A stretch of 64,000 nucleotides of DNA from an uncultured delta proteobacterium (GTDB lineage: Bacteria > Desulfobacterota > Syntrophobacteria > BM002), in contig CAVQGX010000009.1 in the NCBI GenBank assembly GCA_963712115.1, forward strand, positions 1 through 64,000. Direction: 5' to 3'. Position numbers and translations under genes: made by a program. Under the pieces are notes generated by a model, which searched no databases, was not told the DNA's origin, and saw only the letters and a list, made by a program, of their open reading frames with translations. The first letter of the stretch is position 1. Each line of letters opens with the position of its first letter. Of the stretch, positions 18,858 to 30,550 are shown piece after piece.

Positions 18858-19520
18858 CTATACTATCCAAGTCTCCTGATGGAATCCCATGTCCCAGAAG
18901 AGATATTCTAGTTTTGAAGTAATTATAAAGTGATTCCGAACCATTTCCTTCTGGTCATCCGTTAGTTCTTTGGCGACCTGATCCATGACCTCAAGTACCT
19001 GTTTGACTATGGAAGCATATTCTTCGCTCCCATAGGTCTCAATCCAAAGCCGAAAAAGCTCTTTTGGAGATCCCCGTTTTCCAAGCTCCTTCCCTACCTC
19101 CCAGTAGATCCAGTAACACGGGAGAAAAGCTCCCATTCCCTCATAAAAAGGCCGCTCATAGGCAACCCTCAAGAGATAAGACGTGTAAAACAGATTGTTT
19201 GGCGCCATCGGGGTATTGTAAACCTCTTGCTCTGTCAGTTTCCAATTTTTGAAGAAACTCTCATGAAGTGCGCGTTCTACCAAAATGGTATCTCGTGCAT
19301 GTCCGGCGAACATCATAAGCCAGTTATCCTTTTGTGCTTTGGCTCCTAGAATGGTCAGACCCCGAGCAAAGTCACGTAAGTAAAGGGCATCCTGAATGAC
19401 ATAGAAGCGAAAAGCCCCCTCATCCAATGAACCGTCTGTAAGGCCCATGATAAATGGGTGTTCCAAGATTTTATTATATGTCCCTCTTATAGAGTTCCAC
19501 AGAAAATCGGTGAACTTCAC
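18858..19520 (-). CDS. tenA: Thiaminase II / aminopyrimidine aminohydrolase, TenA_C type
   Basis: HPFI..L.DGSL, YVIQDALYL, FLPCYWIY with catalytic Cys, WIETY, LEYLFWDM. Confidence 0.93.
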   Translation of the reverse strand: MKFTDFLWNSIRGTYNKILEHPFIMGLTDGSLDEGAFRFYVIQDALYLRDFARGLTILGAKAQKDNWLMMFAGHARDTILVERALHESFFKNWKLTEQEVYNTPMAPNNLFYTSYLLRVAYERPFYEGMGAFLPCYWIYWEVGKELGKRGSPKELFRLWIETYGSEEYASIVKQVLEVMDQVAKELTDDQKEMVRNHFIITSKLEYLFWDMGFHQETWIV

Positions 19521-19658: not shown

Positions 19659-20300
19659 CTAGGTTTCTTCCGTGGTTGCCATTTCCCAGAATAAGTATTC
19701 ATATCGCGCTGTTATTAAAAACAGCTCTTCCATTCTTCGTAATTCACGTTCAGGTTTGCCTGTTGCCAACTCATTTATAGTGCTACTTAGCCAGTTTACA
19801 AATTGTTGAAATTCTTCATTCGTCCAATTATCAATAAAGTCCTGCCAGGGACTTTGGATTTTCAAATTATTTCTGACCTCTATCCAGGAATCCAGATAGG
19901 CTTTTTCAGCAGCGTAAAGTACCGTAAAGCCCTCTGCAAATGAACTATTGTAAGCGGTACTCATCAAGAATTGATTATAACTATAGCAAGTTGGAGAGGG
20001 CATCACATCTTCTAAATTAACCCCGCGAGCAGAGGCATTTTTTCGAAACAGTTCCAACTCTCGATCCAGACCAGAGAGGATTTTAATAAAGATCGGCCTC
20101 AGATGAGAAGGCGCCTTTGCCAACAGCACTGCAACAAAAGGGATTGCTTCTTGCACAAAGACATAGTCCTGCTGTATCCAAGTTCTAAAAGCCTTATCTG
20201 AAATACTCCCCTCGGCTGTCATTTTAAGAAAGCGGTGATTCAGAATGGCATTCCATATATCTTGCGCTTTATCTAGTAATCTTTGATGAAAGTTACTCAT
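19659..20300 (-). CDS. TenA-family protein lacking the catalytic Cys (TenA_E type)
   Basis: WIQQDYVFV, LYAAEKAY in place of LPC, YEYLFWEMA; GGAGG SD. Confidence 0.88.
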   Translation of the reverse strand: MSNFHQRLLDKAQDIWNAILNHRFLKMTAEGSISDKAFRTWIQQDYVFVQEAIPFVAVLLAKAPSHLRPIFIKILSGLDRELELFRKNASARGVNLEDVMPSPTCYSYNQFLMSTAYNSSFAEGFTVLYAAEKAYLDSWIEVRNNLKIQSPWQDFIDNWTNEEFQQFVNWLSSTINELATGKPERELRRMEELFLITARYEYLFWEMATTEET

Positions 20301-20739
20301 AAATAACCTCCTTTGATTTAGTCTCGATGTTGGGGTAGATCGCGGTCATCGAGGATGGCAGGCCATTTTGCCAACTTGTTAAAGCTTGAATAAGTTGTGG
20401 TCTGAAAAAGCATATCCAAACCTAAAGACCTTCAGGTGATGTCACACCTGTTTTGTTTTCCGAGGTGAGAGGAATGGCTTGCTTTGAAACTTCACATCAG
20501 ATCGTTGTAGAAATCCGACGAGAGCAAGAGGAAAGTACATATGACATCGAAAGGCCAGGATTCGCTGGAGCAAATTTACCACAAAATCTGGAAAGGGCGC
20601 AAAGCGAAATCGCTCGCCTCAAAATCTTCGAGGATCGAGGGCGGGTGACAAGAATGTCAGAATGGTGTTATTTGCAGTCGAGGAGGGTTGGTGGGAAATT
20701 TAAACCTATAACGCCTATAAGGCCTCCTCTTGTCAACGG

Positions 20740-21170
20740 ATAAACGTCTCCCAGGAACGAAAAAGTTCTTTTTTCGTCAAACAACTTTGATGATGCCGTA
20801 ACAAGGCTCAGCGTTCCGATTTTGTTTCCCGATCAGGTTTGCAGATACCGTGTCTGCACCAAACGCCTATTGAGGGTCATCTCCCGCTCAATGCGGGAGC
20901 ACGGGCCCAGTTGCATTAAGGCCCGCACTTAGAAATCTATCCGTACCCGTATGCCGGCCCCTTCGATATGGCGGGCTCAGGTGAGTCACCAGTCCCAGTT
21001 ACTGTGTGGGCTCGGGGACGGAGCAGAACACGGAAACCACTGTACCGACATCATACTTATATAAACTGACTGGGGCCAGGGTGTGTGTCCAATCGCTTTA
21101 GAAGGGCTCGACAGACTGTCCCTGTCATGGTCCAGTTATAAGTAGGGCTCACACACTCCGCCCCAAGCTT
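20740..21170 (-). ncRNA. Putative bridge/seek RNA in the IS110 3' non-coding end
   Basis: Repeated GAGCCC-N10/12-TGG units in stem-loops; segments match the IS junctions (AAGCGAT, ATAGGCGTT); ends approximate. Confidence 0.7.
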
Positions 21171-22217
21171 TTAGGCTGCACTGAGAAAGATGTCCATATC
21201 GAAAGCTTCCCTTCGCTTGAGCATGAAGTAGACAGCACGGCCGAGCTTGTGGGCTAAGATGCTCAGAGCTTTGCCCTTGCCGTGTTTTCTGACCAGACGC
21301 TTGTGATAGTGCTGGGCTCGTTGATTATCTATCAAAAAGCAAACAGCGGCTTCTGAGAATGTCCACTTGAGATGAACGTTGCCGATCTTTTTGTTTGTGG
21401 TGCCCTGCTTCTTTCCTGCCGACTCCCTGGGACATTTGACCAGACGACAGTAGGAGACAAAGTCCTGCACCTTGGGAAAGCGACTGATCTGGTGGATTTC
21501 GTACAGAAGCATCAGAGCGAGAATCTTGCCAACTCCGGGAATCGTTTGCAGAAGATCCAATACCTCAGGGTTATGATCTCTGGCTGTTCTGAGAATATAG
21601 AGTTCAACATCCCTGAGCAGGCCATCATAGAAATCGAGTAACTGAAGGTCCACCTCGATGCTCTTGTTGGCACTGGGATCTGGAAAATGCTCTGCTACTC
21701 CTTGACGATTGCATCTGGAGGTGATTGCTTTGGGTAGTGGAGGAAGATTGTATTGACTGTTGGTGTTGTGAATGTGAGTGAGCAGCTCGGCGCGTTTGCG
21801 CTTGAGGTAGTTGCGCCGGCGCAGAAGATCCCGGGTGGAGCGCATCTGTCTAGGATAGACATAGGAAACGGGAAGTGTGCCTCCACGCAAAAGAATGGCA
21901 ATCTTCTTGGAATCGATCCTGTCGTTCTTGCTCTTGCCCCCATGGATGGCTTTCATGTAAAGAGCATGGCCCAGAACAAAGGGAATCGCCTCCTCGCTAC
22001 ACAGATCTGCCAGCCAGTACCACATGAATATGCACTCAACCGCAACAACGATGTCCTCACGGTACGGTGCAATGACTTTCAAGAATGATTCCGCTGAGGC
22101 TTTCCTGTTTCCGTGGAATAGAGTTTTGCCCGCCTGGTCCAGAATGCAAATGTACATGCTCCGGGCGTGAAGGTCGATTCCGCAGTAATACTTGTGCTGT
22201 TTGGTGTAAAATCTCAT
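21171..22217 (-). CDS. IS110-family DEDD recombinase/transposase
   Basis: GIDLH, VAVE, KNDRIDS (DEDD), TIPGVG, RESAGK catalytic Ser, KIGN..LK; start ATG 22217 after AAGGAGG. Confidence 0.95.
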   Translation of the reverse strand: MRFYTKQHKYYCGIDLHARSMYICILDQAGKTLFHGNRKASAESFLKVIAPYREDIVVAVECIFMWYWLADLCSEEAIPFVLGHALYMKAIHGGKSKNDRIDSKKIAILLRGGTLPVSYVYPRQMRSTRDLLRRRNYLKRKRAELLTHIHNTNSQYNLPPLPKAITSRCNRQGVAEHFPDPSANKSIEVDLQLLDFYDGLLRDVELYILRTARDHNPEVLDLLQTIPGVGKILALMLLYEIHQISRFPKVQDFVSYCRLVKCPRESAGKKQGTTNKKIGNVHLKWTFSEAAVCFLIDNQRAQHYHKRLVRKHGKGKALSILAHKLGRAVYFMLKRREAFDMDIFLSAA

Positions 22218-22822
22218 AGGGCTTCCTCCTTTGAGTGTAAGTGGTTTGTGGCGATAAACCACATATTACACTTCACTGGAGGAGGCCTTTATAAGTATCG
22301 CTTAAGCTTGAATTTGTGTTAGGCCAACGAGTGCAGATATGATGAGAAGATCTTAACTTTTCACGGATGCTTTGGACTCAAGATAAATAGCAGTATACTT
22401 AACTTGGGCCTGACTAGTGAATACCACTACCTATTGTGGTACCTAGCGACATCTTAGAACACGAACTTGCGAGTTTAACCGTCACTTTATATTTCGGATT
22501 GCTACTCGGCCTGAGTCTGGACTTCTTGATGGGCGGTAAGTCGTGACAACTTGTCAGGAGTAAACTTTTCAAAAGGGTACAAATTGTGAGTATACGCAAT
22601 CAGTAAGCTGCGTGCGAGACAATAAGCATCATCATCTACCTTTCACTAGATTGGTAGGTTTTATTGGTATTTGAGGTGGATGATATTTGGGGAGTCCCAC
22701 AAGCGATCAAAGGTTTTGACAAGTCAGATTTTTGTGAGGTAATTTTTTAACTTGTCTCCATTTTGACAAACTTGCCTAGGGGAACTTACTAACTTATGTA
22801 CATCAGGACCAAAGGAGATTCT

Positions 22823-29914: not shown

Positions 29915-30550
29915 GTGGGGCAATAAAAAAGGATCTTATGTTATTTCAAATAGTTAAGCAGCTATAGATTTGAAAGAGCTGCAAAGTTATTGTCCTGAAA
30001 GAGACCAAGAATTGTCACAGAACCGACCATTTTGGGTATGTATATCAAAAATTAAGCAGCAGGAGGGGTTGGGGCGGACTTCATATTACATCCCTTAATC
30101 CACACTCGGCCAGATTTCATTCTAGCACAAGATGTTGAGAAGAAAAAAAGCGGAGCAAAGGACTCCGCATTTTATTAGTTTAAACCAAGATATTGTATAT
30201 TGGGCTCAAGAGCAAAAGTGTGGATTAAAGTATGTAATCCACAGTCCAGGGGACCAACCTAACCTTCAGATCATCACGCCTACGCTAACTCTCGGATCAT
30301 TTAAATACGTTGAGGATATGTTAATTATTTGAAACTAATTGAGATTCAACATAGCAGATATTTGACATTATAGATCGCAAGAATCATATACAAGATCTAG
30401 CAATGATGGATCTAGATGTGATGAACGGCAAGAGTATGAGGGGTACCCCAAGATAATACACTATATAAAAAAGCTGTTATTGTTGATGCGTCACTCCTGG
30501 ATCTCATTTTAATAAAGATACTAAGTTAAGTAGTGCCTGTCTGCTATCTT

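Follow-up and report, generated by a model that had tools for sequence, protein, structure and literature searches.

Does the non-coding end of an IS1111-type insertion sequence encode a guide RNA whose loops hold, past the core, letters that fit the DNA only after strand exchange? In IS621, such handshake letters lie 3' of the right guides and pair with positions 6–7 of the non-cognate DNA after top-strand exchange; if they already pair with the cognate DNA beforehand, the reaction is blocked (PMC11208158). Efficiency and direction are set by whichever configuration gains base pairs through the exchange (PMC13626964; papers are cited here by PubMed Central number). The question is raised by one element in a stretch of 64,000 nucleotides from an uncultured delta proteobacterium (GenBank assembly GCA_963712115.1, contig CAVQGX010000009.1, positions 1 to 64,000), referred to below as the window. 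Downstream of the transposase gene lie three loop-bearing units, and a preliminary description made from the letters alone had matched segments of these units to both junctions of the element with its target, including two letters past a shared core. All five of its string matches are literally present where it had placed them. We consider it likely that the locus is an intact IS1111-type element with a downstream bridge (or seek) RNA, in which unit 1 reads the target, unit 3 reads the donor and each carries a dinucleotide that would pair after exchange. Left and right follow the transposase orientation, which is the minus strand of the window; loci of relatives bear L numbers and contigs of the same genome C numbers.

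Guide strands and the letters past the core

Relatives were collected by a scan of one genome per species, which yielded 67 loci from many phyla with 41–85% amino acid identity in the best segment (both extremes come from fragments), and two further relatives came from plasmids. Approximately 50 were compared for guides and junctions. Before the permutation tests we dropped L035 and L016 (mis-anchored) and L015 (a stop codon in the transposase gene), excluded the right end of L006 as disrupted and corrected eleven rows by hand from the printed sequences.

The guide segments follow the junctions. In unit 1, the six core-adjacent letters of the 3' strand agree with the cognate left flank at 3.79 of 6 positions on average versus 2.15 of 6 for non-cognate flanks, a value reached by 0 of 20,000 permutations (38 guide–site pairs). 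The 3' strand of unit 3 matches the right end at 4.67 of 5 positions versus 3.32 over nine distinct guide/end combinations (2 of 20,000 permutations), and six pentamers (ATAAG, ATAGG, AGAGG, ATATG, ATAGA and ATATA) each fit their own right end. The signal is weak for the unit 1 5' strand against the right flank (4.64 versus 4.30 of 7; 614 of 20,000 permutations) because most targets are alike; the right flank TTATAA also occurs at sites seen in other runs. A blind scan of each alignment column against each junction position revealed covariation of columns 21097–21099 (unit 1 3' strand) with left-flank positions −2 to −4 and of column 20867 (unit 3 3' strand) with right-end position −2 (25 of 27 versus 12.6 expected). 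It also found column 20938 to be complementary to left-end position 6 in 21 of 28 cases versus 8.5 expected, which places the 5' guide of the donor loop at 20932–20940 and not in the unit 2 segment. A linker segment, UAUAAGUAU (about 21043–21051), was tried as the donor 5' guide and rejected, being not conserved in the sister element described below. Overall, the locus has two sequence hallmarks of a bridge or seek RNA: a structured loop with two strands matching both target strands, and a second loop matching the donor ends, with a 3' strand that covaries with the right end.

This covariation bears out the earlier assignment of unit 1 to the target and unit 3 to the donor. Equivalent segments do not stay fixed where targets differ; both the segments and the core letter (TG to CG) change with the targets. 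Among the individual strings, the 9-mer AACGCCTAT (+ strand) occurs just twice in the 64 kb, once at the right junction (20710–20718) and once in unit 3 (20862–20870), compared to 0.24 occurrences expected, with 2 of 100 shuffles reaching two. The 7-mer ATCGCTT shared by unit 1 and the left junction (21092–21098 and 22297–22303) is present but, taken alone, stands at chance level (10 versus 7.8 expected), and is meaningful because of its position and the homologs. The unit 1 letters TATAAC do complement the target letters GTTATA (+ strand, 20707–20712).

Past the core, each 3' strand carries two further letters, AU in unit 1 and UU in unit 3. In DNA letters these are AT and TT in all 33 relatives with an open full-length frame, representing 28 distinct guide sets. 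Their DNA partners are AT at the left end in 41 of 41 parsed and TT in the right flank in 33 of 38 parsed; the flank exceptions are L043 (AT), L013 and L049 (TG), L019 (TC) and one mis-parse, and the RNA letters are still UU. In the window element, all four letters match the non-cognate DNA versus two of four for the cognate DNA. When metagenomes were scanned for unit 3 variants whose first handshake letter is not T, 17 loci were identified, with roughly 20 chance matches expected by a rough estimate. Nine are recognisable relatives, and the remaining eight, without element features, were taken as chance matches. The transposase gene is broken, truncated or missing in six of the nine (L092, L093, L095, L096, L098 and L105), and two are cut by a contig end (L097 and L102). 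The sole intact variant, L101 (348-amino-acid gene), has GU in the RNA and a target flank that starts with GT. L015, which carries the letters CU and UG, has the stop codon noted above. As a separate observation, L092/L098 and L093 are solo remnants that lack a transposase gene and keep only the right end together with the 3' half of the donor loop.

A second, ISGsu4-like clade with about 30% amino acid identity to the window transposase (L090, L108, L109, L111 and L117–L125, from Burkholderiales, Pseudomonas and Pseudoalteromonas plasmids; two records are annotated with this name) carries other dinucleotides. L110 and L112–L116, with 27.5% amino acid identity and below and other architectures, were excluded from parsing. 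The target-loop letters and the element end are AG/AG in L090, AA/AA in L111, L117, L118 and L119, AT/AT in L109, L121, L122 and L124, and AT/AA in L108. The donor-loop letters and the target flank are TG/TG in L108, AC/AC in L109 and L123, AC/TC in L090, and TC/TC in L117, L118, L120, L121 and L122. Pooling element types from both clades, 17 of 18 non-cognate positions match in the donor loop versus 4 of 14 cognate positions (36 of 100,000 shuffles reach this), and 15 of 16 versus 3 of 14 match in the target loop (3,513 of 100,000 shuffles). By sequence match, the letters fit the non-cognate DNA better than the cognate DNA, which is how handshake letters are defined for IS621, and these figures support reading the two extra letters as handshake-like. 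The 2-nt extensions of the preliminary description are invariant in the close family, and they covary with the non-cognate partner in the second clade and L101. A megablast search for further copies of L090 found itself alone. Two side observations concern this clade: in L111 and L119, on two Paraburkholderia plasmids, another IS110-family element cuts the non-coding region ~230 nt past the stop codon and removes the donor loop, and L109 has a second ATGGGTG motif ~17 nt past its right end, possibly left over from a former right end.

In the arrangement that we propose, both strands of unit 1 would pair with the target: the 5' strand with the right flank (G + TTATAA) in its transposase-sense strand, and the 3' strand with the left flank and core (..AAAG-CG) in the opposite strand. 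Those of unit 3 would pair with the donor, the 5' strand at the beginning of the left end and the 3' strand at the right-end terminus and core (AUAGG-CG). The post-core letters would fit the other loop's DNA, AU the first two letters of the element and UU the first two of the right target flank, so that they could pair only once strands have been exchanged. One base pair would be gained per loop on exchange, because the second letter, T, is common to both DNAs, and by analogy with IS621 this would favour insertion over excision. We infer that the RNA is made and that the transposase binds it, as well as the order of strand exchange and any influence on direction; by the same analogy, the extensions may drive directionality, as had been proposed.

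The element, its predicted RNA and its target

The 348-amino-acid transposase matches Pfam PF01548 (DEDD_Tnp_IS110, E 3.8e-15) and PF02371 (Transposase_20, E 2e-18), both above the curated cut-offs, and has the domain pair of the IS110 family, a DEDD (RuvC-like) N-terminal and an IS116/IS110/IS902 C-terminal domain. Downstream of the gene lie 457 nt of non-coding DNA versus 81 nt upstream, as in the IS1111 group. An inverted-repeat search upstream versus downstream of the gene found 11-bp repeats, within the IS1111 range of 7–17 bp, that are set in from the left end by 10 nt and from the right end by 5 nt. The IS1111 group is marked by a C-terminal GL-P----S(t)G motif and a 330–350-amino-acid transposase (PMC11187229); the length falls in that range, and by eye the translation, unaligned to references, holds a ..P-R-E-S-A-G.. 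stretch. We place the element in IS1111 because of the long downstream non-coding region, the subterminal repeats and the transposase length (PMC11187229, PMC11208160). In a virtual circle junction, 31 of 32 relatives have TTGAC[A/G/T] 17–18 nt from a hexamer made of the core G and left-end letters 1–5, which together would form a circle-junction promoter. A junction promoter of a comparable kind has reportedly been found in ISEc11.

Table 1 Features of the element and its predicted RNA in the window
Feature	Position	Strand	Basis
Whole insertion sequence, 1585 bp, IS110 family, IS1111 type	20714..22298	-	Second copy's diverging flanks; contig breaks
Transposase gene, 348 amino acids, open frame	21171..22217	-	Pfam domains
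Left subterminal inverted repeat, 11 bp	22279..22289	.	Inverted-repeat search
Right subterminal inverted repeat, 11 bp	20719..20729	.	Inverted-repeat search
Core CG, left junction	22299..22300	.	Common to both junctions
Core CG, right junction	20712..20713	.	Common to both junctions
Unit 1, target-binding loop domain, 97 nt, 10-bp outer stem	21069..21165	-	Stem covariation
Unit 1 5' strand, RNA UACUUAUAAC, complements core G + right target flank TTATAA	21135..21144	-	Weak covariation
Unit 1 3' strand, target part, RNA CUAAAG, left-flank sense	21096..21101	-	Covariation
Unit 1 3' strand, core letters CG	21094..21095	-	TG in relatives
Unit 1 handshake-like AU, equal to element left-end letters 1–2	21092..21093	-	Invariant; second-clade covariation
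Unit 2, conserved third stem, internal loop built like unit 1	20961..21022	-	Stem covariation
Unit 3 5' guide, RNA AUAGAUUUC, complements core G + element left end	20932..20940	-	Column scan
Unit 3 3' strand, donor part, RNA AUAGG, sense of right end's last 5 nt	20866..20870	-	Covariation
Unit 3 3' strand, core letters CG	20864..20865	-	TG in relatives
Unit 3 handshake-like UU, equal to right target flank letters 1–2	20862..20863	-	Invariant; L101 and second-clade covariation
UGGUGCAG, 3' half of long-range helix closing units 2 and 3	20854..20861	-	Partner CUGC at 21023–21026
TTGACA within the right end, candidate −35 box of a promoter formed solely at the circle junction	20731..20736	-	Inferred

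The predicted RNA is organised by helices, with the guide segments sitting in internal loops between them. The unit 1 outer stem is 92.5% paired in 32 sequences versus 40–46% when one side is slid, and all 10 of its pairs show changes on both sides. Unit 1 is 97 nt long here versus 152–184 nt in the other 31 aligned relatives, and the window element is therefore without the relatives' inner hairpin. A long-range CUGC/GCAG helix encloses units 2 and 3; its pairs are mostly invariant, with one flanking pair that covaries. Together, this closing helix and the covarying stem of unit 2 are 94.4% paired versus 30–50% when slid.

The core is shorter than the GCG originally proposed: the functional core is CG, and the base before it differs between the two junctions of relatives. 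Among 41 parsed left junctions, the core is TG in 39 and CG in 2. Nearly all follow one plan, with flank, TG and ATAC/ATAG/ATAA at the left junction and ..ATA[A/G]G, TG or GG and TT(A/C)GG.. at the right; the window element alone has CG at both junctions and in both 3' guide strands, where relatives have TG. In 12 relatives the right junction has GG or AG versus UG in the guide. The letter before the shared G at the right junction gives GG in L017, C54, L009, L010, L044, L045, L050, L049, L056 and L071 and AG in L025 and L019, with T at the left junction and in the guides. Because this pattern is inherited within lineages, the right end appears to carry the letter along with it, which may leave a single G as the core that is truly shared.

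Copies elsewhere define the ends and the site. On contig C29 of the same genome, the flank similarity of a 99% identical second copy stops at 20714 and 22298, and contigs from four public runs (estuary, marsh and marine sediment) break at both element ends, adding three left flanks (all ..AAAG before CG) and one right flank (starting with TTATAA). Unoccupied look-alike sites in public-run contigs read continuously ..ATAA-CG-CTT.. on the + strand. The insertion site is ..AAAG-CG-TTATA(A/G).., at the foot of a palindromic repeat unit; AAG-CG is common to the copies on C9 and C29 and to the public-run flanks, and TTATA is present wherever a right flank is seen. Between the two junctions only CG is common, giving the short core without a long target duplication that is typical of the IS110 family. 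The four-run contigs reported no joint and no circle junction, which is uninformative on activity as contigs drop rare forms.

CG-core copies were sought in 60 related genomes, and none was present among those searched; the same search turned up a TG-core sister element alone, in three genomes. This sister, with 75% amino acid identity to the window transposase, also lies in the same genome at C54:11217–12878 (L003/L004) and has an open 348-amino-acid frame and its own target guide, ..CGAGU-UG. An unoccupied site with its 20-letter left flank is found on C31 at about 156440–156480. A dispersed repeat with the core T(A/G)GATTAAAGTATG occurs at 30221 (+) in the window and at 31 other places in the genome (contigs C2–C60), making 32 copies on both strands, with a conserved ..TGTGGT.. 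motif ~25 nt upstream; Rfam held no family matching it. The palindromic unit targeted by the window element follows the repeat in C29, C31 and C16, and the ..GTCCGACTGCAGCGAG.. box targeted by the sister element follows it in C13, C27, C31 and C42. Just upstream of the target site, two adjacent paralogous frames on the minus strand (18858–19520 and 19659–20300; 220 and 213 amino acids) presumably encode proteins of the TenA/thiaminase-II type.

Competing explanations

Several observations weigh against a guide RNA with handshake-like letters. The permutation figures overstate the signal, as the relatives share descent and are not independent, and the unit 3 5' guide fits the window left end in part (6 Watson–Crick pairs and 1 wobble in 9). 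The flanks of the insertions in L043 (AT) and in L013 and L049 (TG) misfit UU, and in the window element the first letter alone discriminates between target and donor. In the close family, both the handshake letters and their DNA partners are invariant, which makes a scaffold role possible there, and the constancy of the left-end letters could also reflect a −10-like hexamer at the circle junction. Most second-clade element types are represented by one insertion, and the ends in this clade were placed from homologous spacing; one letter fails to match in each of L090 and L108, and the L108 5' guide fits only with a 1-nt bulge. An Rfam scan of 20300–22700 at a permissive threshold found no match, and the available RNA runs contained 0.07 or less of the words sampled from the stretch. 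Finally, a short 82-nt seekRNA of ISEc11 with both target matches sufficed for movement (PMC11187229), so that some IS1111 elements may be able to do without the donor loop.

These points are taken furthest by the proposal that the post-core letters are loop scaffold, for example a closing structure before the conserved UGG, and resemble the junctions through coincidence and shared descent. They never vary in the close family and always precede UGG, and with one discriminating letter per loop here the chance of agreement is about 1 in 16. In the second clade, however, the scaffold carries AG, AA, AT and TG, AC, TC, tracking the non-cognate DNA, and the close-family variants are broken, truncated or contig-cut, except L101, where the target base fits; we regard a pure scaffold role as quite improbable. 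It is unlikely, too, that each 3' strand guides to an integrated junction over its full length of nine contiguous letters, serving excision and not an insertion handshake. Both strands match the integrated junctions unbroken, and the RNA of IS621 serves in excision as well, where it binds substrates across its two loops (PMC13626964), but IS621 letters that pair before exchange inhibit the reaction, so perfect junction pairing would disfavour excision (PMC11208158, PMC13626964). The junction-like repeats might also be sites in the DNA, either transposase binding sites or remnants of earlier ends, with no guide RNA at all; solo right-end remnants elsewhere (L092 and L093) fit this idea, which is nevertheless extremely unlikely given that the segments are surrounded by helices with many compensatory changes and that the layout equals that of experimentally shown bridge and seek RNAs (PMC11208160, PMC11187229).

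The guide-RNA reading we prefer leaves unit 2 without an assigned guide. The preliminary description had noted that its letters TATCG complement CGATA; the letters are real but at chance level, with complementarity that exists only because CG is its own complement (palindromic). Relatives have TTTGA at this place, which reads as T + core + A in the sense orientation, and the segment is rejected as a donor guide. The 5' strand of the unit 2 loop ends in ..UAAC, and its 3' strand is UUUUGA in relatives and ATCGA in the window element, where the core-like letter has also changed from T to C. No covariation of either strand with any junction position was found by the column scan or, for the left flank and right end, by eye. 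The copy of the element's left end within unit 1 that had been reported is real: TTATAAGTA has two matches in the window versus 0.15 expected, at 21136–21144 in the unit 1 5' strand and at 22289–22297, corresponding to left-end positions 2–10. Relatives show no such copy, and its three 5' letters fit none of three right flanks (C9, C29 and run X2). We consider it doubtful that IS1111-type bridge RNAs have three working loops, with unit 2 as a guide loop and, in the window element, the unit 1 copy capturing about 10 letters of donor strand. If they did, unit 2 would serve, for example, excision or a generic second site, and the unit 1 capture would be a handshake far longer than the two letters of IS621.

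Relation to known systems

Most relatives of the window element sit just before a GTTAGGC-like box, which we take to resemble the right-hand core site of attC; the IS1111-attC group inserts into integron attC sites beside a GTTRRRY box. Many relatives fit this pattern. The right flank in the window, TTATAG/TTATAA after the core G, does not fit GTTRRRY, and the element appears from these flanks to have moved to another target, ..AAAG-CG-TTATAA... This is a natural case of retargeting in which both target guides and the core letter (TG to CG) changed together, and it shows which RNA letters need co-editing for reprogramming. RNA-guided bridge recombinases are under development as genome-editing tools, to which handshake letters are relevant in that those of IS621 set reaction efficiency and direction. 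Bridge RNAs in IS1111 elements have reportedly been predicted by Durrant et al., and target matches are said to have been shown by Siddiquee et al. A handshake rule for the IS1111 type seems unprinted: the full-text literature searched described neither donor-loop rules nor handshake letters for this branch and yielded IS621 studies, a review and an unrelated preprint, with supplements outside the search, and supplementary tables or extended figures of Durrant et al. may already show donor loops of other IS1111 elements.

Compared to insertion directly beside an attC box, ISKpn4 of the IS1111 group is placed 10 nt further upstream in a review table (PMC13604230). Like the IS1111 elements with seekRNAs (ISEc11, ISPa11, ISKpn4 and ISPst6), the window element has a downstream non-coding region, subterminal repeats and a 330–350-amino-acid transposase, with the top-strand match 5' of the bottom-strand match and matches that overlap in the target (PMC11187229). 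It differs in its targets and ends and in the putative donor loop and handshake letters, neither of which is described in the consulted sections of PMC11187229, where the matches are to the target only. The ISGsu4-like clade has the same scaffold of AGCC, 7–9 letters, core TG, two letters and UGG, and the same spacing of core and inverted repeat. It shares the handshake logic but differs in its right end (ATGGG), its targets and its dinucleotides.

The comparison with IS621 is the closest in principle. Both combine a DEDD recombinase with one RNA whose target and donor loops each read both strands and the core (PMC11208160), and in both, two letters 3' of the right guide would fit the non-cognate DNA after exchange (PMC11208158, PMC13626964). 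With the + strand of the window as top strand, each loop has the IS621 layout of 5' left guide, 3' right guide, core and dinucleotide. Several features set the window element apart from IS621. Its predicted RNA follows the transposase gene, and its guides come in mirrored order when read in the direction of the transposase. CG (TG in relatives) takes the place of the CT core, the subterminal inverted repeats are long and a third loop-bearing stem, unit 2, stands between the loops; the transposase is only distantly related, with the same Pfam domains. Together, these likenesses suggest that the IS621 handshake rule holds in the IS1111 branch in mirror orientation, which would introduce no new principle and would extend a known one.

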